Origin: Candidatus Pacearchaeota archaeon
GTDB taxonomy: Archaea; Nanobdellota; Nanobdellia; Pacearchaeales; GW2011-AR1
Reading direction: 5' to 3'
NCBI GenBank assembly: GCA_023144035.1
Contig: JAGLGM010000001.1
Coordinates: 135,422 to 199,421 of the forward strand
DNA length: 64,000 nucleotides
Under the pieces are notes generated by a model. It was not told where the DNA came from. It saw nothing but the letters and a program-made list of their open reading frames with translations, and did no database searches. Of the stretch, positions 5,221-60,688 are shown one piece after another; the first letter of the stretch is position 1, and each line of letters starts with the position of its first letter. The position numbers were made by a program, and so were the translations under genes.

Positions 5221-8200
5221 ATGAAAATTGAATTTACACCTATAGACTATGATTATTTTGATTTTCAAGGGAGGAATTATGCAAAAATAATAGGTAGAAA
5301 CAACAAAGGTAAACGTGTTTGCATAATTGATTCTTGCCCTGTATATCTTTGGGCAATTCTAAAAGATAAAGTAAAAGAAAATAAAACTAACAAATTAATT
5401 GAAAAAATACAAAAAATCAAACTTAATGTAAAAGGTAGACAAACAAAAGTTGAAAAAGTAGAAATTCATGATAAAAATTTCATGGGAAAACAAGTAAAAG
5501 CATTAAAAATATTTGCAACAAACTATAAAGATTTACATGATATTGCAGATAAATTAGATTTACCTGAAATAGAAAAAAGAAGAGGATATGATTTAGGATA
5601 TATTACACATTATATTATTGAAAAAAAACTTAATCCTTTAAATTGGTATGAAATTTCAGGAGAGTTATTAAATAATTCTCAAGATTTTGGAGGAATTGAT
5701 ATGGCTTTAGATGTTGATTTCTGTATAAAAACTAAACAAATAAAAGAGCTAAAGAATAAAACAACTTTCAAACCAAAAACTTTAGCATATGATATTGAAA
5801 CTGATAAATTAGAAATTGGAAAAGGAGAAATTTTAATGATTTCTTTAGTAGGAGATAATTTCAAAAAAGTTATAACTTGGAAAAAAAGCAAATCAAAACA
5901 AGATTATGTGGAATATGTAAATGATGAAGTAGAATTAATTGAAAAATTTATAGAATATATAAAAAAAGTATCTCCTGATTTTCTAGTAGGTTATTTTTCA
6001 GATGGATTTGATTTACCTTATTTAAAGGCCAGAGCAGAAAAACACAAAATAAGATTAAATCTTGGATTAGATAATAGTCAACCTAAATTTTCAAGAGGAA
6101 TAACTATGACAGCTAAAATAAAAGGCATCACCCATATTGATATTTTAAAATTTATTAGAACTACTTATGCACAATATATGCAATCTGAAACATTAACTTT
6201 AAATGAAGTTGCAAAAGAGTTTTTAGGAGATACAAAAAAAGATTTTAAAATAAAACATAGTTCAGAATTAGAAGAACATGATTGGAAAAAATATTATGAA
6301 TATAATTTGCATGATTCTGTTTTAACTTTAGACCTCTTCAGAAAGTTCTGGCCAGATATGTTAGAATTTACAAAAATTATACAAGAACCAATTTTTGATA
6401 TTTCTAGAAATGGTTTATCAAAACAAGTTGAATCTTATATTATTCATAATTTAAATAGATTTAATGAAATTCCTGAAAAACGTCCAACTTATGATGAAAT
6501 AGCAAAAAGAAGACATAGGCAAAAAGTAGAAGGTGCATTTGTTTTAGAACCTAAACCAGGATTATATGAAAATTTAGTAATGTTTGATTTTACGTCTATG
6601 CACACAAGCATAATAATTTCTATGAACATATCAAGAGAAACTTTATTAGAAAAACCAGAAAAAAATGCATATTCAATTAAAACAAGAGAAGGTACATATT
6701 ATTTTTCGAAAAAACAAGGTTTTTTTCCTACTTTATTAAAAGAAATTTTTGACAAAAGAAAAGAACATAAAAAAGCATATCAAAAAAATCCAGATGTAAT
6801 TACTTTAGCAAGAAGTAATGCTTTCAAAGTATTATCTGCATCTGCACATGGATATCTTGGTTTTTTTGGAGCAAGATATTATTCTATAGAATCTTCAGCT
6901 TCAATTTTAGCTTTTGTAAGAAAATTTAATCAAGAAGCAATTGAAAAAACAGAAAAAGCAGGACATAAAGTAATATATGGAGATAGTATTGGAGGAGATT
7001 CTAAAATCATTATAAAAAAAGGAGACAAAATATATGAAGAAGAAATAAAAAATTTATTTGAAAAAATAGATTCAAAAAATCCAGATAAAAAAGAATATAA
7101 TTTAAAGAAAAACACAAAAGTATTGACTTTAGATGAAAAAGGAAATTCTGTTTTTAAACCCATCAAATATGTTATGAGGCATAAAACCAACAAAAAGATG
7201 TATAGAATTCATTTTACAAACAATTGGAATATAGATACTACTGAAGATCATTCTTTAATCGGCTATCAATCTAGCCATTTTAATCAAACAGAAATATGTA
7301 AAAAAGACCCTCTAAAAAGATTAACAGAAATAAAACCAGAAGAGATTAAGAAAAAAGCAAACAACATAATAACTTTAAGTAAAATTCCAAATAAATTTCA
7401 AACTAAAAATTATCCAAAAGAAGTATATGAATTTATAGGATTTTTTATTGGTGATGGAAGTTTTTGTAGAAATAAACAACATAATAAAAACAATAAAGAT
7501 TATTACCTAGGGTTATCATTAGGTTTAGATTCTGAAGAAGTAATAAATAAACTAATAAAACCATTAATAAAATTAGGCTATATCAAAAACTATTGGGAAA
7601 GTAAAACAAGAAAAGGAGACATAAAAATTAATGGACTAAAATTAATAAAAATTATTTCCCAAAATTGTAGAAACAAAGAAAATAAGAAAATAATCCCTTC
7701 TTGGCTTTTTGATGAAAAAGAAGAAAATATAGCATCTTTTTTAAGAGGTCTATTCTCTGCAGATGGAACTGTTATGATAAGAAATAATGCTCCAATAATA
7801 AAATTTACTTCTATAAATCAAGGCCATATAAATAATGTGAGAAAATTACTATTTAGAGTTGGGATTTCACATTCCACATTTAAAGAAAATAATCCAAATA
7901 AATATAAAACAAAACAAAAAATATACTCTTCAAGAAGTTATTCCAAAAACATAATTCTAAAAGATAAAGAAAAATTCCATGAAGAGGTGGGATTTTTACT
8001 AAAAAGAAAAAATGACAAATCAAAAATAAAAACAAAGGGAATTCAAAAAAAATTAATTAAAAATTTTGAATTTGATTTGCAAGGAGTAAAGAAAATAGAA
8101 CAAATTAAAACTCCAAAATATGTTTATGACATAGAAGTAGAAGACAATCATAGATTTTTTGCTAATTATGTTTTAGTCCATAATACAGATAGTGTTGCTT

Positions 8201-8877
8201 TTACTTCAGAAAAAAAATCAAAAAAACAAATCTTAGGATTTTTAAAAAAATTAAATAAAGATTTACCTGGGATAATGGAACTTGAACTTGATGGTTTTTT
8301 CAAAAGAGGTTTGTGGGTAACTACAAGAGCAGGAACTGTTGGAGCTAAAAAGAAATATGCATTAATTGATGAAAAAAACAACATAAAAATAAGAGGATTT
8401 GAAACAGTTAGAAGAGATTGGTGTAAACTTGCAAGAAATGTTCAAAGCAAGGTAATAAATCAAATCTTAAAAGATGGAAATGAAAAAAAATCTTTAGAAT
8501 ATTTAAAAAACATTGTTAAAAAAGTAAAACAAAGGGAAATAAATAAAGAAGACATAATTATTAAAACACAATTAAAAAAACCATTATCAGAATATAAAGC
8601 TATTTCTCCTCATGTTATTGCTGCTAGAAAAATGCAAGAAAAAGCAATTCCTGTTGGAGAAGGAAATTTAATTAATTATTTTATTGCTGAAACAAGAGAT
8701 AAAAAGAAATTAGTAAGAGATAAAGTAAAACTTCCAACTGAAAAAGGAGAATATAATATTAAATATTATTTAGAAAGACAACTTATGCCTGCAGTTGAAA
8801 ATATATTTCAAGTATTTGATGTAAACATCAAAGAAATTATTGAAGGTAAAAGACAAATGACTTTAGGAGATTTTTAA
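5221..8877 (+). CDS. polB: family B DNA polymerase, interrupted in frame by a 400-aa intein
   Basis: Exo I LAYDIETD, motif A DFTSMHTSII, motif B KVLSASAHGYLGF, motif C split as YGD / intein / TDS. The spliced extein is 818 aa. Confidence 0.95.
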   Translation: MKIEFTPIDYDYFDFQGRNYAKIIGRNNKGKRVCIIDSCPVYLWAILKDKVKENKTNKLIEKIQKIKLNVKGRQTKVEKVEIHDKNFMGKQVKALKIFATNYKDLHDIADKLDLPEIEKRRGYDLGYITHYIIEKKLNPLNWYEISGELLNNSQDFGGIDMALDVDFCIKTKQIKELKNKTTFKPKTLAYDIETDKLEIGKGEILMISLVGDNFKKVITWKKSKSKQDYVEYVNDEVELIEKFIEYIKKVSPDFLVGYFSDGFDLPYLKARAEKHKIRLNLGLDNSQPKFSRGITMTAKIKGITHIDILKFIRTTYAQYMQSETLTLNEVAKEFLGDTKKDFKIKHSSELEEHDWKKYYEYNLHDSVLTLDLFRKFWPDMLEFTKIIQEPIFDISRNGLSKQVESYIIHNLNRFNEIPEKRPTYDEIAKRRHRQKVEGAFVLEPKPGLYENLVMFDFTSMHTSIIISMNISRETLLEKPEKNAYSIKTREGTYYFSKKQGFFPTLLKEIFDKRKEHKKAYQKNPDVITLARSNAFKVLSASAHGYLGFFGARYYSIESSASILAFVRKFNQEAIEKTEKAGHKVIYGDSIGGDSKIIIKKGDKIYEEEIKNLFEKIDSKNPDKKEYNLKKNTKVLTLDEKGNSVFKPIKYVMRHKTNKKMYRIHFTNNWNIDTTEDHSLIGYQSSHFNQTEICKKDPLKRLTEIKPEEIKKKANNIITLSKIPNKFQTKNYPKEVYEFIGFFIGDGSFCRNKQHNKNNKDYYLGLSLGLDSEEVINKLIKPLIKLGYIKNYWESKTRKGDIKINGLKLIKIISQNCRNKENKKIIPSWLFDEKEENIASFLRGLFSADGTVMIRNNAPIIKFTSINQGHINNVRKLLFRVGISHSTFKENNPNKYKTKQKIYSSRSYSKNIILKDKEKFHEEVGFLLKRKNDKSKIKTKGIQKKLIKNFEFDLQGVKKIEQIKTPKYVYDIEVEDNHRFFANYVLVHNTDSVAFTSEKKSKKQILGFLKKLNKDLPGIMELELDGFFKRGLWVTTRAGTVGAKKKYALIDEKNNIKIRGFETVRRDWCKLARNVQSKVINQILKDGNEKKSLEYLKNIVKKVKQREINKEDIIIKTQLKKPLSEYKAISPHVIAARKMQEKAIPVGEGNLINYFIAETRDKKKLVRDKVKLPTEKGEYNIKYYLERQLMPAVENIFQVFDVNIKEIIEGKRQMTLGDF
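6985..8184 (+). mobile_element. PolB intein with LAGLIDADG homing endonuclease, inserted in motif C
   Basis: Starts at Ser (SIGGDSKIII) directly after YGD; block B TEDHSLIG; LAGLIDADG motifs FIGFFIGDGSF and SFLRGLFSADGTV; ends YVLVHN and is followed by TDSVAF. Confidence 0.9.
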
Positions 8878-21993: not shown

Positions 21994-22111
21994 TGGCCCT
22001 GGAGGGATTTGAACCCCCGACACCTAGATATCTCCAAACAAAGTTTGTTTCAAAGTCAATGAAACCATCGCATTAAGAGTCTAGTGCTCTACCAAACTGA
22101 GCTACAGAGCC
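21994..22111 (-). tRNA. tRNA-Lys (CUU) with a 44-nt intron at the canonical 37/38 position
   Basis: Hand-folded: acceptor GGCTCTG/CAGGGCC, D arm GCTC..GAGC, anticodon stem CTAGA/TCTAG with loop CTCTTAA, T arm GGGGG-TTCAAAT-CCCTC. No encoded CCA. Confidence 0.85.
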
Positions 22112-29931: not shown

Positions 29932-31365
29932 TTAATTATACTTATAAATCGCAGAAAAGCCTGTATCTTCAGAACATTCAAAAGATTTTTCAAAATTATC
30001 ATCTAAATCTTGTTTTATTTGAATATTTATTTCATTATTTAAAGGCATATCAAAATCTGTAAACAAAATATATACCTCTTTTTCTTCATAATAATTATTT
30101 ACTAAATTATTTAAACCCTCCAACCCCATAGGACGAGGATAAAAATGAGTTTCTTTTTTTGAATAATAATAAACACGAGGCGACTCATCAGTCATAACCA
30201 CTGAATTTTCCTCAAGATTCTTCAAAAATTTATTTGCTTCTATAAAACATAAATTAGTTGGATTATTTTCTTTATGATATGTAAAACCAAATTGTAAAAT
30301 AAGAGATGTTACTAAAAAAAGAATAATGATTGAAAAAATAGTTTTTCTTAATTTTTTAGTTTTAAGTTGAGAAACAAAAAAACCACTCAAAATACAGATA
30401 GCAGGAGAAATAGGTAATAAAAATCTAATTTCTTTATAATGATAAATTGAAGAAATGATAAAAAATAAAAAAATCCATAAAAATAAAAATAAAACTTCTT
30501 TACTTCTAAATTGCTTTTTATAAAAGAAAAGGAAAACACATAAGATAACAACAAGTGCTAAAATTGAAAACATGTAAGAATTCACAACATAAAAAAACAC
30601 AGATTCTGCATGACCTGTTGAAGCTGCCCTTATCCCATGCATAAAAGCTCCTAAAAAATTTTCATAAGTTGATTTTCCAAAACAAAGCCAAGGAATAAGA
30701 ATAACAAAAAATGATAAAATTGAATACCAAAGATATTTATCTTTCAAAAAAGAAAAATTCTTATTTTTTATTAACAAATAAATAGGAAAAATAAGAAAAA
30801 GCCATAAAACAGTATACCTTGTCAATAAAGATAAAGCGAGAAAAACACCAAATAAAATTTTATATTTATCTTTGTTTTCTTCAAAACCTTTCCAAAAAAA
30901 TAAAATTGCAAACAAAAGAAAAAAAGTTGCATAAAGACTACTTAAAAGTTTTGCACTATAAACAACATGAAGAGGAAGTAAAGCGAGAAAAACAGAGGAA
31001 TAAATAGCTACTTCTTTATTGAATATTTTCTTAGACAATAAAAAAACACCCCAAACACTTAATGCGCCAATTATACACATAAAAAATTTAACTAAATTTC
31101 CTAACCCTAAAAGATACCAAATAGCTAAAGTATATGGAAGAACAGGAGGTCTAAATCCTGCTTTTGGCCATTCACCTAACGGAACATAATCACTCCAATA
31201 ACCATTATTAAAATTATAAGAAAAAGGATTACTACTTAAATCATGACCTAAATTTGCAAAAACAGTTCCATCCCAAATTTGAATAGGTTCAACAAAAACA
31301 AAAATAATTCTAACTATTAATGCTAATAAAATTAAAAAAATTAAAAATTTATGTTCTTTTTTCAT
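29932..31365 (-). CDS. GT-C fold glycosyltransferase (family 39 / ArnT-PMT-like)
   Basis: Polytopic membrane protein, roughly 11-13 TM helices, with an ArnT/PMT_2-like N-terminal third. Confidence 0.55.
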   Translation of the reverse strand: MKKEHKFLIFLILLALIVRIIFVFVEPIQIWDGTVFANLGHDLSSNPFSYNFNNGYWSDYVPLGEWPKAGFRPPVLPYTLAIWYLLGLGNLVKFFMCIIGALSVWGVFLLSKKIFNKEVAIYSSVFLALLPLHVVYSAKLLSSLYATFFLLFAILFFWKGFEENKDKYKILFGVFLALSLLTRYTVLWLFLIFPIYLLIKNKNFSFLKDKYLWYSILSFFVILIPWLCFGKSTYENFLGAFMHGIRAASTGHAESVFFYVVNSYMFSILALVVILCVFLFFYKKQFRSKEVLFLFLWIFLFFIISSIYHYKEIRFLLPISPAICILSGFFVSQLKTKKLRKTIFSIIILFLVTSLILQFGFTYHKENNPTNLCFIEANKFLKNLEENSVVMTDESPRVYYYSKKETHFYPRPMGLEGLNNLVNNYYEEKEVYILFTDFDMPLNNEINIQIKQDLDDNFEKSFECSEDTGFSAIYKYN

Positions 31366-31455
31366 TTTATTATTTCAAAACCTCCAATAATTGAAATGAT
31401 ATAACTAAAAATCTTGTTAAAGATTTTTTGCCTATGGTGGAAAATTTTTTATTTT

Positions 31456-32211
31456 TCATTTTATATTAAATTTATCATATTTTTTTATATTATATTTTTG
31501 TAATAAATATTCTAGAATTAAGTTCAAAACAGCAAACCCATAACCAATAGAATTTACATTACACTTTTCTTCACCATAACAAGTAGGAATTACAATTTCT
31601 TTTATTCTTTTCTTGGCGATAATTAATTGAATTATTATTTCTGAATCAAAATGAAAAACATCTGAATTTTTATTAAAAGGAATTTCCTTCAAAGCACTAA
31701 CAGAATAAGCTCTAAAACCAGAATGAAACTCTGAAAGATTTGTTCTAAAAGCAAGATTCTCACAAAAAGTCAAAAATTTATTTCCTATAAATTTGTAAAG
31801 AGGCATATTTCCTTTCAAAGGTTGCCCAGCAATTCTTGAACCAAAAACAAAATCTGCTTTATCTTGTTTTAAAGGTTTTATTAAATCAGGTACATCTTCT
31901 GGAGGATATTGACAATCACCATGAACCATGACAACAATATCAAATTTATTTTCAATAGCATAATTATAACCCCATTTCTGATTTCCCCCATAACCTTTAT
32001 TTTGTTTATGTTTTATAACTTTTAATTTTTGAAATTGTTTTTTATTTTTATAATCTATAGCAATTTTATAGGTATTATCTTGAGAACAATCATCTGCAAC
32101 TAAAATTTCTGTAGCTTCTTCTAAAACACTTTTAGGAAACCTATTTAATAACTTTCCAATTGTCAATTCTGCATTATATGTTACAACTAAAATTAAAATT
32201 TTCTTTTTCAT
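31456..32211 (-). CDS. family 2 glycosyltransferase (polyprenyl-phosphate sugar synthase, GtrB/DPM-like)
   Basis: LVVTYNAE, VADDCSQDNT, GDCQYPP. Confidence 0.75.
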   Translation of the reverse strand: MKKKILILVVTYNAELTIGKLLNRFPKSVLEEATEILVADDCSQDNTYKIAIDYKNKKQFQKLKVIKHKQNKGYGGNQKWGYNYAIENKFDIVVMVHGDCQYPPEDVPDLIKPLKQDKADFVFGSRIAGQPLKGNMPLYKFIGNKFLTFCENLAFRTNLSEFHSGFRAYSVSALKEIPFNKNSDVFHFDSEIIIQLIIAKKRIKEIVIPTCYGEEKCNVNSIGYGFAVLNLILEYLLQKYNIKKYDKFNIK

Positions 32212-32615
32212 TTTTTAAAAATCCAAAATTTGCTTATAAAAAAATTAATTAAAAATGAAAAACCAACAGCAATAATCTGGGAAAGAATATAATACATCTG
32301 TAAGAATTCTGTTAGAAAATACAAAATAAACAAATTAATAAATAAAATTATTACATTTAAAACAAAATATTTATAATATTTTTTAAAAACTCCATGATTT
32401 AACTTTTCCTTAAAAGTCCAAATCTTATTTAAAATAAAATTATTTGTAACACCAAAACAAAAACCAAAAACTGAAGAAACAAGATAATATATTCCAAAAA
32501 ACTCTGTAAAAATATACAGAACAGCTAAATGAAGAATTGTTCCAGTAAAACCAACACAAACAAATTTAAGAAATTCCTTAACACTCTTTTTTTGCAATCC
32601 AAATAGCATAATCAA
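32208..32615 (-). CDS. GtrA-family membrane protein
   Basis: Four TM helices, FLKFVCVGFTGTILHL, NNFILNKIWTFK. Confidence 0.75.
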   Translation of the reverse strand: MIMLFGLQKKSVKEFLKFVCVGFTGTILHLAVLYIFTEFFGIYYLVSSVFGFCFGVTNNFILNKIWTFKEKLNHGVFKKYYKYFVLNVIILFINLFILYFLTEFLQMYYILSQIIAVGFSFLINFFISKFWIFKK

Positions 32616-32643
32616 TTTAATAGAATTTCTTTTATAAATATAA

Positions 32644-33306
32644 TTAATCTAAATATATTTTCAAATCTTCCACAGAAGTTACTTCCTCAACCACATGTTC
32701 TTGATCAATAATTACCGCAGGATATTTAGAAATTTCAAAATCTTTAAGTAAAGCATCTAAAGAAACTAAATTACTATTTACAGCAATAGGAATTAAGATT
32801 ATTTCATTTCCTTGCTCTTGTTTTAAATCAAATAAAACTTTTGACCAAACATTTTGTGTTGCTTTTATAACTAAATCCTCTGGATCATACTCATAAAGAT
32901 AAACAACAGAATTAAATTCTCCTTTACATTTTTCTGAGATATCTATAGTATTAATCCACAAATAAGTTCTTAACATGTCATATTTCCTATGAGCTAATTT
33001 TAAACCTTCTGTAATTTTCCCTGCCTCTTCATATTTTTCTAAGGTAAAAGCTTCTGCATAAATATTATCTGCTAATTTCAAATTTGAATCCATTAAAACT
33101 TCACATACCTCGTTAGAATCAATTCTCTCATTTAAAGCAAGAATATCCATAAATAAAATCTCAGACCTAGTATAATATTGTTCTACTTCATCTAATTTCC
33201 CTCTTTCAAAACCAGCCCCTATAAGCATTCCTAAAATAAAAATTATTAAAGTTAGTATAAGTGCTTCCCAAAAGACTCTTTTCTTATTTTGTAATATTTT
33301 TTTCAT
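32644..33306 (-). CDS. membrane-anchored hypothetical protein (220 aa)
   Basis: N-terminal TM anchor; remainder unrecognised. Confidence 0.4.
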   Translation of the reverse strand: MKKILQNKKRVFWEALILTLIIFILGMLIGAGFERGKLDEVEQYYTRSEILFMDILALNERIDSNEVCEVLMDSNLKLADNIYAEAFTLEKYEEAGKITEGLKLAHRKYDMLRTYLWINTIDISEKCKGEFNSVVYLYEYDPEDLVIKATQNVWSKVLFDLKQEQGNEIILIPIAVNSNLVSLDALLKDFEISKYPAVIIDQEHVVEEVTSVEDLKIYLD

Positions 33307-33320
33307 TTTTTATTTGTTTT

Positions 33321-33428
33321 TATCAGGCTTGACCCTATTTTAAAGGAAGTTTCATAAAAGAAACCTTGGTGTCTTATCAGGCTTGACCCTATTTTAAAGG
33401 AAGTTTCATAAAAGAAACCTTGGTGTCT
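33321..33428 (+). repeat. 54-bp intergenic element, two perfect tandem copies (B1 and B2)
   Basis: TATCAGGCTTGACCCTATTTTAAAGGAAGTTTCATAAAAGAAACCTTGGTGTCT occurs twice back to back. Confidence 0.95.
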
Positions 33429-33433
33429 TTTAT

Positions 33434-34675
33434 TTACCATGTCCGCTTTCTTTTTAAAAATTTAGTTAGTGAAATTATAAGGATTATAGGATATGCTAAT
33501 AAATAAAATATCAAATAAAACCCTAATGTAATTGGCCCTATTTTTTTATATTGTTTTTCTCTTGAATTTGAAAGTGCTATAAGTGTAAAAAGAAGACCAA
33601 ATAAGAATAAAGTTATTCCTAGAAAAACAAGAACATGAGGTGTAAGATTTATTTCTCTTAAAGTAAGCATTGCTGTATGAGCCCCTATTGAGTATTTTGT
33701 TGAAAGATAATTAACAATTAATTCTCTTGAAAGTCTATATACTAAAATAAAAATTCCAAATAAACCTAATAACCAAGAAAGAACAAAGAAAGGAAGAATA
33801 AATGTTCCTAACATTCCTTTTCCTTTAAGAGCCTGTTTTTTATATTTAAAGATAGTCTGCAACCCACCCATATTCCACCTATTTCTTTGATTAAGCCATA
33901 CTTTCACAGTACTTGGGGCAACAGAATAAACTCTTGAAGGAACACACATTTTTATTTTCCAATTAGCCATCTGAAGAGCCCATACAATTTCTATATCTTC
34001 TGTTAAATTTTTTTCGTCAAACCCCTTAACCTCATCAAAAGCTTTGCTTCTATATAATGCTAAAGGACCAGGAGTAACATAAATAGAATCAATAAATTCT
34101 AATAATTTTCTGCTAAATTTAATTACTTTATATTCTATTGCTTGTAATTTTTCAATAAAATTATTTCTATTTTTTACTAAAACTGTAGAGGTTACAGCTC
34201 CAACTTGAAGGTCATTAAAAAAACCTATCATCTTATTAACAGAACCTTTTTCAGGATAAGAATCAGCATCTGTAAATCCAATTAATTCTGTTTTAACAAA
34301 TTGAGCCCCATAATTTTTTGCTCCTGCTGCATTTCCTGTATTTTTAGGTGTTTGAACAGCCATAACTTGAGGATATTTTTTAGCATATTCTTTCATAATC
34401 TTATAAGAATTATCAGTACTACAATCATCTACCACAATTATTTTTTTTAATCCTTTATAACCTATATTTAAAAGAGATTCTATAGTTCCTCCAATATCTT
34501 TCTCCTCATTATAACAAGGAACCACCATACTCAAAGAATACTGCTTTTTTGATTTAGGAAAATAAAAAAATTCATCTTTATTTTGAATATATATTAATAA
34601 AAATAAGAAAAAGAAATACAAAGCTATGAAGGTATATACTAAAAATACAATTGTTATAAAGTCCATTTTATGCAA
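33434..34675 (-). CDS. processive family 2 glycosyltransferase (NodC/PgaC/chitin-synthase-like)
   Basis: VVPCYNEE, VVDDCSTDNS, TDADS, TEDIE, QRNRW; flanking TM helices. Confidence 0.75.
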   Translation of the reverse strand: MHKMDFITIVFLVYTFIALYFFFLFLLIYIQNKDEFFYFPKSKKQYSLSMVVPCYNEEKDIGGTIESLLNIGYKGLKKIIVVDDCSTDNSYKIMKEYAKKYPQVMAVQTPKNTGNAAGAKNYGAQFVKTELIGFTDADSYPEKGSVNKMIGFFNDLQVGAVTSTVLVKNRNNFIEKLQAIEYKVIKFSRKLLEFIDSIYVTPGPLALYRSKAFDEVKGFDEKNLTEDIEIVWALQMANWKIKMCVPSRVYSVAPSTVKVWLNQRNRWNMGGLQTIFKYKKQALKGKGMLGTFILPFFVLSWLLGLFGIFILVYRLSRELIVNYLSTKYSIGAHTAMLTLREINLTPHVLVFLGITLFLFGLLFTLIALSNSREKQYKKIGPITLGFYLIFYLLAYPIILIISLTKFLKRKRTW

Positions 34676-34676
34676 A

Positions 34677-35267
34677 TCAACTAGAATTCTTCTCTTTTAA
34701 AAGATTGTTAGTCTCAGATTCAACATTAAAATAATCATAAAAATCAGCACTTAAACTAAGTTCATAAGTATGTCCTTGTTTTTTCTTTTTAATAAGGTCT
34801 AAATCTTTAAACTTCTTTATATGGTCATAAGCTTTATTTCCTCTAATTTTAATAATTACTGATTGTTTTATTGGTTGTTTAAATGCAATAATTGCTAAAG
34901 TTTCTTGCTCTGCATTTGAAAATTCAGCGCTTCCTGTTGCTAATTTGTTAATTAAATAAGTATAAGCTGGTTTTACGTCCATTTTCCACATTTCATTCTT
35001 CTCTTGTTTAACTTCTTCAGAAGAAAAATTGAAACCTCCTTTTTTAACAATTTCCAGTGCAAAATCTTCAGTATTATATTTTTCTTGAATTTTTTCAATA
35101 AGTCCAGGAATAATTACAGGATTTAAATCAGATAATGTAACAAGTTCAGGCATTGTTAAAAATCTACCAGAAACAAAGAATATAGCTTCTAATATTTTCA
35201 TATCTTGTTTTTGTTTTAAATCATCTATTTCATCTAAAGTATCACTCTTCATAAAATCAAGAAGCAC
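34677..35267 (-). CDS. scpB: segregation and condensation protein B
   Basis: ILEAIFFVSGRFLTMPEL and ETLAIIAFKQPIKQSVIIKIRG, i.e. two wHTH repeats. Confidence 0.65.
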   Translation of the reverse strand: MLLDFMKSDTLDEIDDLKQKQDMKILEAIFFVSGRFLTMPELVTLSDLNPVIIPGLIEKIQEKYNTEDFALEIVKKGGFNFSSEEVKQEKNEMWKMDVKPAYTYLINKLATGSAEFSNAEQETLAIIAFKQPIKQSVIIKIRGNKAYDHIKKFKDLDLIKKKKQGHTYELSLSADFYDYFNVESETNNLLKEKNSS

Positions 35268-35826: not shown

Positions 35827-36453
35827 ATGAGTTTATCCAAAAAACTAAAAAACTTTGGAATTGCTACTAGTATTGTTGCTTCTTCATTCTTACCTATGAA
35901 ATCTTTAGCTCAAGAATTTGCAAACACAACAAATAAAAACAACACAGAAACAATACAAGATGATTGGAACTTCTCTTCTTATATCTTTTTCTTACAACCT
36001 CATGATTCTGATTTTAAAGATTGGTTTGGTTCTTATTTTGCTATTCAAGGAGAAGCAAAAAGAAAAATGAAAGAAGATATTTATTTAAATGCAAATGCAA
36101 CAATTGGGTTTGGAAAAGATAATTTAGAAAATATTTCAATAAATTCCACATTAGTAAAAATTGCAACAATGTTTGAATATCAAATTGGAACAAATGAAAA
36201 TTCAAAAGTTGCAGTAGGGGTTGGACCAGAAATTTCTAAACTTTCAATAAACTGGGCAAGTAGTGGAAGTGGAACAAATCAAAGTGGGAATTTAGATTAT
36301 TCTGGATTAGGATATATACTCCAAATGCAATACACACAAAATATAAGTGATCTTTTTGATTTAATAATTTCAGGAAGTTATTCTAAAGTAAAAGATGAAG
36401 ATACAAATGTAAACATTGGAACCACAGGAATAGCAGTAGGTTTAATATTCTAA
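35827..36453 (+). CDS. signal-peptide protein with an 8-strand amphipathic beta pattern (OmpA/OmpX/OmpW-like barrel?)
   Basis: Signal peptide ending KSLA/QE; eight alternating-hydrophobic strands; C-terminal GIAVGLIF ending in Phe. Confidence 0.45.
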   Translation: MSLSKKLKNFGIATSIVASSFLPMKSLAQEFANTTNKNNTETIQDDWNFSSYIFFLQPHDSDFKDWFGSYFAIQGEAKRKMKEDIYLNANATIGFGKDNLENISINSTLVKIATMFEYQIGTNENSKVAVGVGPEISKLSINWASSGSGTNQSGNLDYSGLGYILQMQYTQNISDLFDLIISGSYSKVKDEDTNVNIGTTGIAVGLIF

Positions 36454-38828
36454 ATCTTAAATCTCAATATAGCGCCAATCCCACCTAAATTATAAAATTG
36501 CTGTCCTTCTTCAGTATCTGTTGAAATAATTTCTATACTAGAACCAATATTCTTTGCTATAGGTGTTAATTCTTTTGCTATTTTTTTATCAAGATCTTTA
36601 GATAAAAATAAAATATCAACTGCACCATATTCTAATGCTTTTTTTGTAGCTGTTTCTTTTAAAGTTGCTAAATCTGGTTTTTCACCCAAAGTTTCAAAGA
36701 ATTTTTCCATTAATTTTTTCTCTTTAATTATTTCTTGACTAGCTAATATGTCTTGAGATTTTTTTACAAGTTCTTTTAAACCTGATTCATCAGAACCTCC
36801 AATATCTACTCTTCCAATAATTTTTTCTCTCAACTTTGTAACCAGATATTCATTATCTATAAATTCATCCTTAGTAGGAATAGGTCCTCCAATAATAATT
36901 CCTTTAAGTTTTGACATCTCAAAAAAGATTTTTTTTACTTCGTCTGCAATTCTTTTGTAAAAATCTTTTGTTAACCCTTCAGTAATTCTATGAAATCTTT
37001 GTGATGAATTATGAACAACCAATCCATTAGCTAAAAAATTGTGGTTTTTAGTCTCGATATCTACTGTTTTCATATTTCCAAGAGATTCAATTTTAGAAAT
37101 CTTAACAGCAATTAAATTAGAATTGTAAAAAGTTTCTAGTCTTCTTCTTAAATCTTCATCTTGAATTTTATCTAAGATTCTTCTCTTAAAAACTTCTTTA
37201 CTCATTTGTCTTTTATTACAAAAGAAATATCCACAATGGAAATCTCTTGTATTTAATCCAGAATTCCTTATTATTTTAGCTACTTCACTTCCATTGACAA
37301 CCAATTGACGAACTTTATTTCTAGAACTTCTATTATTAATTAATTCATCTACTTTCTGTTTTTTTTCTGTTGAACAAAAACCTATTTTTTCTTTAAAGAT
37401 TTTTAAAGATTCTAAATCATCAATTGCTAAAGTATATCTAATATTATCTGAATAAGGATTTTTCAAATTATCATATTCACTAACAGAAGATAAAATTCCC
37501 AATCTTAATAAACTAAATTGTATTTGTTTTGTTAGCAATTTATTATTTATTCCAAAAGCAACTCTTCCTCCAGAAACATACCCTTCAGCATCAAAAAACC
37601 CTCCTATAAATGAAGCTAAAGATTTATCAGAGGATTTTAAAACGAGTTGAGGAATTTTCCCATCTAAAGTTTTATCTTTATCAGAAATTATCTGTTTAAA
37701 TAATTGAGAAATAATTCTGCTATAAACTCTTAATTGCCAATAATTTTTAGAGCTTCTAAATCTTAAATCAGAATCAATTTTAAAAATTTCTTTAATTAAA
37801 TTCTGGTAATGTTGAGCTACCTCTTTTCTTTGCTCAAAAAAAGTTATCCTATCAATTTCATAACTTCCATCTCCTAAATAATAACCTATAATTCTTGTTA
37901 AATCAGGTGTTATTTTTTTAGGAATATTAATTTGTTTCATATTAAAACTTTGCTTAATTTTGGGAGTAAAATTTATTTCTTGATCTTTATTATTAATCTC
38001 TATTTTTTCAGGAATAATTAAATAATCTTCTGTCTTAATTTCACAAAGAGGTTTTTCCTCAATTCCTTTATCAGTTCTAACAAAAAAAGTATGATCTTTA
38101 GAAGCTTTAATTTCAAATCTAGGATAACAAGTTGTAATCTTAAATAATTCCTTATTATCCTCCCATTTTGCAATAAGAGGTGTTTCTTCTGTTTTTTCTC
38201 TGTTAAAATTTTCAGAAAGAACCATTAAAGGATTATGAGAATCTTTTATCTCTAAAATATCTCCATCAGGTTTCATTATTAAAGTATTTGGAGAAAGACA
38301 TTGACCTCCTGCTCTAACTTTACTTGGAATTCCAGAAGTCATCTTTTGTAAAACTTCAATTCTTTTTCCTTCTAACAAACCAATTGTAGCTTCTTTTCTA
38401 TCCATAACAAGTAACCCAAAAACCTCAGAAACTTCTAACATTTCTTTTAAAGGGTCTAAAACAAATTCCTTATCACATCTATACAAACGAACTTTGATAG
38501 GCATATGAGGTTCAATATCCCATAGTTGTAAATCTTGTTGTCCTTCTGATTTTGAAACATTTCCACAAAACAATGCTAATCCATTTTCAGGAGTCTTCTT
38601 CAAACTTTTCAAATGTCTAACAATCTTATCTAATGCTTCTGTAACATTTTTTCTTGTTCCAGTAGATTTAATATTTTTAGCAGTAGATTTTTCTGCTTCT
38701 AATTGTCTTTGAACAGCATTTACATCATAGCCTGAAGAAATATATACAGTAATAAGTTCAGTCTGCCTACCTCTATATTTTTCAAGTTCTTCAACTACTG
38801 ATTCAAGTTCATCTTTAGTTAATTTCAT
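36450..38828 (-). CDS. prf1: peptide chain release factor aRF1, interrupted in frame by a 431-aa intein
   Basis: NIKS motif (AKNIKST); GGQ at aa 174-176; canonical GGQ-SSQRF restored after removing the intein. The spliced extein is 361 aa. Confidence 0.9.
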   Translation of the reverse strand: MKLTKDELESVVEELEKYRGRQTELITVYISSGYDVNAVQRQLEAEKSTAKNIKSTGTRKNVTEALDKIVRHLKSLKKTPENGLALFCGNVSKSEGQQDLQLWDIEPHMPIKVRLYRCDKEFVLDPLKEMLEVSEVFGLLVMDRKEATIGLLEGKRIEVLQKMTSGIPSKVRAGGQCLSPNTLIMKPDGDILEIKDSHNPLMVLSENFNREKTEETPLIAKWEDNKELFKITTCYPRFEIKASKDHTFFVRTDKGIEEKPLCEIKTEDYLIIPEKIEINNKDQEINFTPKIKQSFNMKQINIPKKITPDLTRIIGYYLGDGSYEIDRITFFEQRKEVAQHYQNLIKEIFKIDSDLRFRSSKNYWQLRVYSRIISQLFKQIISDKDKTLDGKIPQLVLKSSDKSLASFIGGFFDAEGYVSGGRVAFGINNKLLTKQIQFSLLRLGILSSVSEYDNLKNPYSDNIRYTLAIDDLESLKIFKEKIGFCSTEKKQKVDELINNRSSRNKVRQLVVNGSEVAKIIRNSGLNTRDFHCGYFFCNKRQMSKEVFKRRILDKIQDEDLRRRLETFYNSNLIAVKISKIESLGNMKTVDIETKNHNFLANGLVVHNSSQRFHRITEGLTKDFYKRIADEVKKIFFEMSKLKGIIIGGPIPTKDEFIDNEYLVTKLREKIIGRVDIGGSDESGLKELVKKSQDILASQEIIKEKKLMEKFFETLGEKPDLATLKETATKKALEYGAVDILFLSKDLDKKIAKELTPIAKNIGSSIEIISTDTEEGQQFYNLGGIGAILRFKI
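37008..38300 (-). mobile_element. aRF1 intein with LAGLIDADG homing endonuclease, inserted between GGQ and S
   Basis: Cys1 (CLSPNTLI), block B SKDHTFFV, LAGLIDADG motifs IIGYYLGDGSY and SFIGGFFDAEGYV, terminal GLVVHN, +1 Ser. Confidence 0.9.
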
Positions 38829-48231: not shown

Positions 48232-48254
48232 ATCCTTCTCAATCAGATATTCAT

Positions 48255-48329
48255 GAGGCTGTAGCTCAGCCTGGTTAGAGCACTACTCTGATAAGGTAGG
48301 GGTCCACGGTTCAAATCCGTGCAGCCTCA
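48255..48329 (+). tRNA. tRNA-Ile (GAU)
   Basis: Hand-folded cloverleaf: acceptor GAGGCTG/CAGCCTC, anticodon loop CTGATAA, T arm CACGG-TTCAAAT-CCGTG. Confidence 0.9.
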
Positions 48330-48427
48330 TTTAATTAACTTTAAATACCTCAAATAAATAAGATTAAAATGGAAAGACAAAAAATCTCTTCCATTTTTAG
48401 CTCATTTGCTAAAAGGAAATTTATCAA

Positions 48428-60593: not shown

Positions 60594-60688
60594 GTCCGAG
60601 TAGCTCAGTGGTAGAGCGCATGGCTGTTATGTTATGAAGCAAACTCGCAGTTACCATGAAGTCGGAGGTTCAAATCCTCTCTCGGACG
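60594..60688 (+). tRNA. tRNA-Asn (GUU) with a ~23-nt intron at 37/38
   Basis: Hand-folded: acceptor GTCCGAG/CTCGGAC, anticodon stem CATGG/CCATG, loop CTGTTA-intron-A, T arm GGAGG-TTCAAAT-CCTCT, followed by a T5 run. Confidence 0.85.

Follow-up and report, generated by a model that had tools for sequence, protein, structure and literature searches.

In the accepted view, diderm bacteria and the organelles descended from them are marked out by transmembrane β-barrels of the outer-membrane protein (OMP) class, the assembly of which is taken to depend on Omp85 and the β-barrel assembly machinery (BAM). Here, we describe a 208-aa protein encoded in a 64,000-nucleotide stretch of the Candidatus Pacearchaeota archaeon assembly GCA_023144035.1 (contig JAGLGM010000001.1, positions 135,422 to 199,421), which we refer to as the window. 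With moderate confidence, we read it as a Sec-exported, eight-stranded transmembrane barrel of the OmpX/OmpA-transmembrane/Ail/NspA class that inserts itself into a membrane and serves, at the interface between symbiont and host, as a surface anchor or adhesin. Its closest structural relatives, Ail, OmpX, and NspA, are adhesins, not channels. With OmpX/Ail/Lom and NspA/Opa (PDB: 1qj9, 3qra, 1p4t), the archaeal protein shares its size, a Sec signal peptide layout, a predicted eight-strand meander, and a C-terminal aromatic β-signal. As in OmpX, Ail, and NspA, long hairpins with variable tips lie on one side of the model, and short turns and both termini lie on the other. Unlike these proteins, to which no sequence similarity was detected, it is encoded by an archaeon without known outer membrane or BAM, and it has an 18-residue polar N-terminal linker and a conserved loop, L1, with a helix (PHDxDLKDxFGSY).

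The N-terminal transmembrane domain of OmpA, OprF-N, and OmpW (PDB: 1bxw, 9fzd, 4rlc, 2f1t) also have eight strands, with template modeling scores (TM-scores) of 0.6 to 0.69 for OmpA and OmpW and 0.49 for OprF-N, and, as in them, Gly, Ser, Thr, and charged residues are common at the lumen-phase positions of the archaeal protein. There is no sequence-level match to this group and, unlike OmpA, the archaeal protein has no C-terminal peptidoglycan-binding domain. Another point of comparison is PopA of Bdellovibrio, a predator OMP reported to enter the prey membrane; small barrels form lipid-enclosing oligomers, and a possible distant PopA relative was noted in the archaeal Altiarchaeales (PMC12228718). 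The likeness to PopA is a functional analogy that would suit a symbiont in need of outside lipids, as both would be small outer-membrane-type barrels of organisms that live on another cell, but PopA is absent from the best 50 structural matches described below, and the lineage here is Nanoarchaeota-type, not Altiarchaeales. A full-text literature search on Nanoarchaeota- and Woesearchaeota-type DPANN archaea turned up no description of barrels of the OmpX/OmpA type. The fold and the superfamily are thus known, but a conserved, clade-specific, hypervariable archaeal barrel of the OMP class is, as far as we found, undescribed.

Modeling with AlphaFold2 on a 13-sequence family alignment predicted an eight-stranded antiparallel barrel (mean predicted local distance difference test (pLDDT) score 79.5, predicted TM-score 0.69, and mean pLDDT of 75 to 80 for all five models). 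The pLDDT is below 50 for residues 1 to 43 and about 90, mostly above, for residues 47 to 208. Strands b1 to b8 (residues 47–58, 70–82, 85–100, 103–123, 126–147, 150–172, 178–190, and 199–207) are joined by hairpins, and the long strands span 16 to 23 residues, which is OMP-like. In the loop L1 between b1 and b2, P58 and D60 are invariant in the family, and K64, F67, and Y70 are nearly so. A Foldseek search against PDB gave 1245 matches, of which the best 50 were considered (TM-scores normalized to the target). The 29 matches with E < 1e-3 comprise only barrels from bacterial outer membranes and designed transmembrane barrels, led by Ail (PDB: 3qra, E 3e-7, TM-score 0.65), OmpA (PDB: 9fzd, E 8e-7, TM-score 0.69), NspA (PDB: 1p4t, E 3e-6, TM-score 0.69), and OmpX (PDB: 1qj9, E 7e-6, TM-score 0.67). 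The top matches align over 163 to 180 columns, and OprF-N, OmpW, Pla/OmpT, and autotransporter barrels are also among the matches considered. No lipocalin, avidin, fatty acid-binding protein, or β-sandwich was among these best 50. In BFVD, the annotated significant Foldseek matches are all phage-encoded OMP barrels. An OMP-class barrel fold is therefore very likely for this protein, as judged from the model. A first reading of this DNA, made from the sequence alone (hereafter, the sequence-only reading), had proposed an eight-strand barrel in the style of the bacterial outer membrane. The predicted meander, the Foldseek matches, and the Pfam matches below, which are to OMP families only, agree with it. 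That reading had also raised a novel surface-protein fold, which is not supported, since the predicted fold is a known one.

The sequence link to OMPs is clearest in P0011, the positional orthologue of the window protein in a related genome, which matches the Pfam family OMP_b-brl (PF13505) with 33.7 bits (E 5e-8), above the gathering threshold of 28.7. P0003 is borderline (27.9 bits), and five further members match with E < 0.1, giving seven of 11 members in all. In the window protein, the OMP_b-brl alignment includes the β-signal and stops only where model and protein themselves end, and a match to OMP_b-brl_2 is sub-threshold (E 0.007). OMP families are the only Pfam families that recur across the family, and two members have weak matches to autotransporter β-domains; in NCBIfam, P0011 weakly matches the TDE1717 outer-membrane barrel subfamily. 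Generic outer-membrane barrels of the OMP_b-brl type (8 to 10 strands, OmpA-transmembrane-like clan) are thus the sole family class matched, and the archaeal family stands as a separate tight cluster. Neither Ail/Lom (PF06316), OmpX, OmpW (PF03922), nor OmpA_membrane (PF01389) gave a match at E ≤ 1 for the window protein or at E ≤ 0.1 for its relatives. Judged by these sequence matches, the family is distantly related to the bacterial OMP_b-brl superfamily.

The C-terminal strand ends in an OMP-type β-signal, the consensus of which is polar-x-G-x-x-hydrophobic-x-aromatic with Phe as the usual last residue. In the window protein, which has three of the four consensus positions, Gly replaces the polar residue at −7, and Ala was counted as small at −5. 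All four positions are present in seven of the 11 members and three of four in the others. A terminal Phe is found in 10 of 11, including two that have one extra residue. The full set of four is absent from all 76 other open reading frames (ORFs) of the window, of which 14% end in an aromatic residue. The C-terminal Phe and β-signal named in the sequence-only reading were thus found in the protein and its relatives. The family-averaged hydrophobicity profile has a period-2 moment with z = 3.5 (1 of 5000 shuffles) that peaks at 170 degrees, the period of a β-strand. When strand faces are read by alignment column, one face carries I, L, V, and F, and the other Gly, Ser, Thr, Tyr, Lys, and Glu; G52, G94, G131, G133, G160, G162, G183, and G203/205 are invariant glycines of this polar face. 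About five large hydrophobic residues per strand, some 40 in all, lie on the other face. As these exceed what the interior of an eight-strand barrel could take up, and the Gly-rich polar face would suit a crowded lumen, we infer from the model that the hydrophobic face points outward and forms a belt about 9 to 10 residues deep. Conserved aromatics (W47, Y70, Y86, F/W95, Y118, Y169, Y185, and F208) lie near the ends of strands and belt. In eight-strand OMPs, a lumen-facing Tyr on b5 over a Gly on b6 forms a "mortise-tenon" folding core (PMC5542473). Half of this core is recognizable in the archaeal family, which has an invariant lumen-phase Gly on b6 (G162, and also G160) and no conserved Tyr on b5; Y118 (b4), Y169 (b6), and Y185 (b7) are invariant. 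Taken as a whole, the protein is likely to be membrane-embedded.

The gene consists of 208 codons from an ATG start to a TAA stop, and the start is unambiguous because the reading frame is closed by a stop 18 nt before the ATG. The N-terminus, MSLSKKLKNFGIATSIVASSFLPMKSLA followed by QE, has the layout of a Sec/signal peptidase I signal peptide, with a basic n-region (MSLSKKLKNFG), a short and weakly hydrophobic h-region (IATSIVASSFLP), and a c-region (MKSLA/QE) that has Pro at −6 and S-L-A at −3 to −1; this layout is conserved across the family. The assignment, made by inspection and not by a dedicated predictor, agrees with the Sec signal peptide of the sequence-only reading. AlphaFold2 predicted a helix at residues 4 to 20 and then a disordered linker up to residue 46, which differs in length and sequence among family members in both family alignments. 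The protein has no Cys, hence no lipobox. An archaeosortase signal is absent from its C-terminus, and outside the signal peptide it has no hydrophobic helix. Anchoring as a lipoprotein or by an archaeosortase was thereby ruled out (no Cys lipobox, no PGF-CTERM). A class-III (pilin-type) signal peptide, suggested by the conserved KLxNFG, was also rejected: the hydrophobic stretch is short, rich in Ser and Thr, and followed by Pro and an AxA-like site. The Gln at the predicted +1 position (codon 29, 35911–35913) is invariant in the 10 aligned members, and it was also read by eye in P0011 and in the fragment P0005. This Gln resembles the "Q-rule" (N-terminal pyroglutamate), which has been described as Bacteroidota-specific for Sec substrates (PMC5837995). 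It may reflect ancestry, a shielding of the N-terminus after export, or a habit common to this lineage at large.

An exhaustive phmmer search of 1.84 billion cluster representatives returned 13 proteins at E ≤ 1e-3. One of them, P0008 (1787 aa, with Calx-beta-like repeats), matched only with NWAxxGSGTNQ of the b5–b6 hairpin, in 10 stretches, and was left out of the alignments as a spurious match summed over repeats. Its residues ~290 to 1400 contain the motif ANWAVTGSGTNQANATDFGG ten times, which resembles the tip of the b5–b6 hairpin, INWASSGSGTNQSGNLDYSG, and was judged a coincidence of short motifs. The remaining members have 184 to 216 aa (one is a fragment) and are 24% to 44% identical to the window protein. 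They share the signal peptide, the +1 Gln, W47, the signature P-H-D-x-D-[LF]-K-[DS]-x-F-G-S-Y (58–70), Y118, G131-x-G133-P134, Y-S-G160-L-G162, Y169, Y185, and the C-terminal G-x-G-L-x-F. Two members carry source names, a "hypothetical protein" of a Nanoarchaeota archaeon metagenome-assembled genome (MAG) and one of a "Candidatus ainarchaeum sp." MAG. A word-indexed search of 5.8 billion proteins retrieved the query alone with the single sequence, three proteins with the profile, and only P0015 with P0011. The exhaustive search retrieved no bacterial homologue, nor did a query with P0011, the most OMP-like member. A scan of GTDB genomes recovered one locus, already among those known; two scans of metagenome contigs and one of viral contigs did not find the family, PHROGs gave no match, and the 64-kb window contains no paralogue that we could find. 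The family is thus very small and so far confined to DPANN archaea. All members on long enough contigs lie in one conserved slot, ScpB (−), DUF2334 (+), barrel (+), aRF1 (−), in which DUF2334 is not universal. The phyletic check proposed in the sequence-only reading thus came out with family members in the same slot of DPANN genomes and none from bacteria.

Within this slot, the barrel is the fastest-evolving gene. The closest relative of the window locus comes from the Loki's Castle sediment metagenome SDBV01 (L011/L012), where aRF1 is 92%, DUF2334 84%, family-2 glycosyltransferase (GT2) 83%, and ScpB 80% identical at the protein level. The barrel and P0011 are 38% identical, over the first 105 residues only, and their signal peptides are nearly identical. 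P0011 is encoded in the same slot of L011 (10001–10648) and L012 (5186–5833), so that closely related genomes have, after almost the same signal peptide, mature barrels of two widely different types, that of the window and that of P0011/P0015. DNA identity to L011 is 70% to 90% over DUF2334, the spacer, and the signal-peptide codons (70% to 77% across the signal peptide), drops to ~45% over the mature codons (30% to 57% per 60-nt window), which is close to that of unrelated sequences of 25% GC, and returns to 82% to 95% from the stop codon. As identity changes where the signal peptide is predicted to be cleaved and again at the stop codon, the pattern suggests a cassette-like allelic replacement of the mature barrel. 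Read from sequence comparison, it indicates either such replacement or intense diversifying selection, in both cases of the exported part only. Diversification with such sharp bounds is how surface antigens and receptor-binding proteins behave. Across more distant syntenic genomes, aRF1, ScpB, DUF2334, and GT2 are 54% to 72% identical to those of the window and the barrel is 27% to 35% identical. Members of the main family agree best in the belt strands and L1 and differ most at the b3–b4 tip and turn T3.

In the reading that we favor, the precursor would leave the cell through Sec, and cleavage at A28/Q29 would free a mature chain of 180 residues with a lipid-facing belt about 9 to 10 residues deep, aromatics at both of its edges, and an OMP-type C-terminal strand. 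This chain would fold and insert, free of BAM, into a lipid membrane outside the producer's cytoplasm. The inserted barrel would work in anchoring or adhesion rather than as a wide pore, displaying the conserved L1 (PHDxDLKDxFGSY) and the long, hypervariable b3–b4 and b5–b6 hairpins. Signal cleavage, membrane insertion, BAM independence, the target membrane, and the adhesin or anchor role are all steps that we infer. BAM independence would be physically plausible by analogy, because small eight-strand OMPs fold and insert spontaneously into bilayers in vitro (PMC5542473). The barrel itself appears to be the protein's only means of staying with a cell. Barrel termini stay on the side of entry, and therefore the long variable hairpins and L1 would be the parts that pass through the target membrane and emerge beyond it. 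Insertion into the archaeon's own cytoplasmic membrane is disfavored because the variable loops would end up in the producer's cytoplasm; we prefer to it either the membrane of the host cell, where symbiont and host touch, or an unrecognized outer lipid layer. Taken singly, the host membrane is a possible but doubtful target, the archaeon's own cytoplasmic membrane an unlikely one, and an outer layer of its own unlikelier still. A bolder version, which we hold only tentatively and think rather improbable, is that a DPANN clade domesticated or independently retained an OMP barrel as a BAM-free, host-inserted anchor or oligomeric tap for lipids or metabolites, diversified by cassettes in an arms race with hosts.

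If true, a conserved family of archaeal barrels would challenge the phyletic boundary of the OMP class and provide a natural system in which to study barrel insertion without BAM, possibly into membranes of ether lipids. It would also be among the few concrete candidates for the interface between DPANN episymbionts and their hosts, where the machinery for attachment, pore formation, and lipid acquisition is largely unknown. A host-inserted, BAM-free barrel would be the first functional transmembrane barrel of the OMP class in Archaea and a handle on how DPANN archaea attach and feed. These questions could be taken to the bench because the protein is small and predicted to belong to a class of barrels that readily refold in vitro.

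Several observations weigh against this reading. The window protein itself scores only 17.1 bits with OMP_b-brl (E 0.006), under the threshold that P0011 passes, and it matches neither OmpW nor OmpX, so the profile search proposed in the sequence-only reading succeeded for the orthologue and fell short for the window protein. Sequence and profile searches of PDB with the window protein, the family profile, P0011, and P0003 gave nothing significant, the best matches being a nucleoporin and OmpC at E ~0.2. AlphaFold2 run on the single sequence reached a pLDDT of only 33; as the alignment holds just 13 sequences and this run was poor, the confidence of the family-based model may stem from learned OMP-like patterns and not from coevolution. 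The sequence-only reading had described about eight segments of strict alternation; the six that it listed correspond to b3 to b8, and b1 and b2 complete the eight, but on the single sequence the alternation is modest (z = 2.6, 12 of 2000 shuffles) and ordinary among the ORFs of the window. The case for alternation therefore rests on the family, not on the single sequence. We know of no archaeal membrane that hosts such barrels and of no archaeal insertase. An eight-strand barrel leaves little lumen, which makes a transport role doubtful, and the link of the barrel to DUF2334 and the PgaC-like synthase (Table 1) may be mere collinearity, because the gene order of the whole region is conserved in the clade and DUF2334 is missing in one locus (L017).

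A further explanation would be that an ordinary OMP gene of bacteria came in by contamination, as part of a chimeric assembly, or by very recent horizontal transfer. In its favor, the OMP_b-brl family is bacterial and the invariant +1 Gln recalls the Bacteroidota Q-rule (PMC5837995), but the context of the gene is identical in at least five independent assemblies. The same gene order occurs in a 241-kb ENA scaffold, three Logan assemblies (SRR13892602/3/4), and one further ENA contig, and the longest contig with the barrel gene has 478 kb; the samples with the identical locus are from a deep-sea cold seep, Site-F in the South China Sea (project PRJNA707313). GC content is uniform across the locus and its flanks (0.25 to 0.28), the stop codon is interlocked with that of aRF1, and the exhaustive search gave no bacterial protein with either query. 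The window encodes archaeal aRF1 and PolB (both with LAGLIDADG inteins), FEN1, Trm5, FtsZ, aMBF1, NAC, and RadA, and the genomes of the relatives contain the archaeal markers RadA, RpoL, Sec61-beta, and NAC. The barrel gene is real, archaeal, vertically inherited, and old in its clade, as it holds the same slot in genomes where neighboring proteins are 54% to 72% and barrels 27% to 35% identical. Contamination, chimerism, and recent transfer are thus effectively refuted and seem to us exceedingly improbable. A possible ancient transfer from bacteria to the ancestor of the clade would be a question of origin and does not compete with the barrel reading. The sequence-only reading had already thought a binning artefact unlikely, and the recurrence of the gene order in independent assemblies and divergent DPANN genomes, together with the uniform GC, speaks for that view. 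Of the two outcomes that it named as refuting, a confident non-barrel fold and a chimeric contig, neither was found.

What the barrel does, and where, leaves more room for other explanations. It might be an effector that is released and oligomerizes in the host membrane into a pore or a lipid-trapping chamber, from which a lipid-auxotrophic symbiont would draw lipids or metabolites, in analogy to PopA and to the unrelated oligomers of closed eight-strand barrels; we consider this a rather unlikely but serious option. The protein has no anchor besides the barrel (neither lipobox nor archaeosortase signal), its sharp-edged hypervariability suggests an arms race, and the topology argument would put the variable hairpins beyond the target membrane. 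PopA and its relatives, however, are not among the best 50 Foldseek matches, the sequence has no readable feature of conductance or lipid binding, and the lumen-phase positions are rich in Gly and Lys/Glu, as in closed barrels of the OmpA/OmpX type. We think it improbable that this is a diderm lineage, or one with an outer lipid layer, and has a conventional OMP facing outside and assembled by as yet unseen machinery. Classical OMP topology would then place the variable hairpins outside, in agreement with the conservation map, the β-signal is conserved as though recognized by an insertase, a few archaea, namely Ignicoccus, ARMAN, and Altiarchaeum, are reported to possess two membranes (PMC8871954), and the possible PopA-like relative was noted in Altiarchaeales (PMC12228718). 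In the 64-kb window, to which the search was confined, there is however no Omp85/BamA, no other gene of outer-membrane biogenesis (Lpt, Lol, Skp), and no porin; a single small barrel family without a paralogue in the window would imply an implausible outer membrane free of porins, and our literature search found no outer membrane described for Nanoarchaeota-type DPANN. It is less probable still that the protein is not membrane-embedded at all and the OMP prediction is an artefact, with the protein being a secreted or S-layer-associated soluble barrel or sandwich, or a module that binds lipid or polysaccharide and works with DUF2334 and the PgaC-like synthase. The sub-threshold Pfam score, the shallow alignment with its poor single-sequence model, the period-2 amphipathicity that soluble barrels also have, and the conserved, polysaccharide-related neighborhood point in this direction. 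Against it stand the Foldseek matches, which contain no soluble barrel or sandwich in the best 50 and only outer-membrane or designed transmembrane barrels at E < 1e-3, strands of 16 to 23 residues with ~40 greasy residues on one face and invariant Gly on the other, the OMP_b-brl match of P0011, and the conserved β-signal.

As the sequence-only reading had stated, and ORFs and Pfam confirm, the barrel gene lies between scpB and a deacetylase-like gene on one side and aRF1 on the other (Table 1). The stop codons of the barrel gene and aRF1 interlock tail-to-tail with an overlap of 4 nt, an arrangement that recurs in L011, L015, and L017. The slot is usually preceded by a PgaC-like GT2, RpoL, RadA, and topoisomerase and followed by a class-I aminoacyl-tRNA synthetase. 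The DUF2334 gene, 59 nt upstream of the barrel gene and co-oriented with it, is directly upstream at 52 to 79 nt in L006–L009, L011/L012, L015, and L016; L018 has an inserted gene between the two. The barrel gene is probably co-expressed with the DUF2334 gene. The CE4-like motifs EIDD, HGxxH, FKPP, and HKxYHC are strictly conserved in the DUF2334 partner of all syntenic genomes that have it, and, judged by these motifs, the partner may be an extracytoplasmic, metal-dependent enzyme. It is a miniature of 154 to 168 aa with an N-terminal transmembrane anchor that covers about two thirds of the Pfam model, and relatives are encoded in L006 (9439–9945), L011 (9479–9943), L015 (7448–7948), L016 (1286–1789), and L018 (2982–3485). 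A literature search for DUF2334 turned up almost nothing published.

Table 1. Features of the barrel gene and its surroundings, numbered from the first letter of the 64-kb window.
Feature	Position	Strand	Basis or remark
Predicted β-barrel protein gene	35827..36453	+	ORF including stop codon; family, AlphaFold2 model, Foldseek matches to outer-membrane barrels only
Predicted signal peptide, residues 1–28	35827..35910	+	3 Lys in n-region, weak h-region; predicted cleavage A28/Q29
Polar low-complexity linker, residues 29–46 (QEFANTTNKNNTETIQDD)	35911..35964	+	pLDDT <50; 23% gaps, low conservation
Hypervariable cassette, mature-protein codons	35915..36440	+	Sliding-window DNA identity to L011 ~45%, flanks 80% to 95%
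Predicted eight-stranded antiparallel barrel domain, residues 47–208	35965..36450	+	AlphaFold2, Foldseek
Loop L1 with short helix (61–67), residues 58–70	35998..36036	+	Most conserved segment; mean BLOSUM 2.77
b3–b4 hairpin tip, residues 96–111, beyond the hydrophobic belt	36112..36159	+	Most variable part of the barrel; mean BLOSUM 0.19 versus ~2 in belt strands
C-terminal strand with OMP-type β-signal, GIAVGLIF	36427..36450	+	3/4 consensus positions
aRF1 gene with intein, convergent	36450..38828	−	Pfam eRF1_1/2/3, Intein_splicing, LAGLIDADG_3
DUF2334/CE4-like deacetylase-fold gene, membrane-anchored, 154 aa	35303..35767	+	DUF2334 E 1.7e-10; Polysacc_deac_1 E 4e-4
ScpB, divergent upstream boundary of the slot	34677..35267	−	PF04079 E 2e-28; in all syntenic loci
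PgaC/IcaA-like processive GT2 polysaccharide synthase, 413 aa, transmembrane segments	33434..34675	−	TIGR03937 PgaC_IcaA E 2.6e-49; Pfam GT2 families
Unannotated 220-aa membrane protein	32644–33306	−	Glycan cluster
GtrA	32208–32615	−	Glycan cluster
AglJ-like GT2	31456–32211	−	Glycan cluster
PMT_2/GT22-like glycosyltransferase with 10 transmembrane segments	29932–31365	−	Glycan cluster

Beside the locus, the opposite strand carries a cluster of envelope-glycan genes (29932–34675), in which L011 has an extra Polysacc_deac_1 gene. The GT2 at its end matches TIGR03937, which models PgaC/IcaA synthases of poly-β-1,6-GlcNAc (PNAG), over its full length with 168 bits, far under the equivalog cut-off of 422. 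The region resembles the PNAG systems pgaABCD/icaADBC in that a PgaC/IcaA-like GT2, a deacetylase-fold protein, and an outer-membrane-type barrel occur within 3 kb. It differs from pgaABCD in that PgaA is a 16-strand porin with tetratricopeptide repeats (TPR), whereas the barrel here has 208 aa and eight strands, and in that ScpB lies in between and the genes are not all on one strand. A PgaA-like export porin was ruled out by the eight instead of 16 strands and the lack of TPR, which leaves the resemblance as a weak functional lead only.

Two core genes of the window contain inteins. aRF1 has 792 aa owing to a LAGLIDADG homing-endonuclease intein within eRF1 domain 2; its orthologues in L006, L011, L015, and L016 are intein-free and have 361 to 365 aa. 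The other is the family-B DNA polymerase (5221–8877, + strand, 1218 aa), in which Pfam finds a LAGLIDADG domain. A single tRNA gene, tRNA-Ile(GAT) at 48254–48330, was called by both Rfam and ARAGORN. Two more were called by Rfam and not by ARAGORN, at 21994–22111 (−, 118 nt) and 60594–60688 (+, 95 nt), and these are probably intron-containing archaeal tRNA genes.

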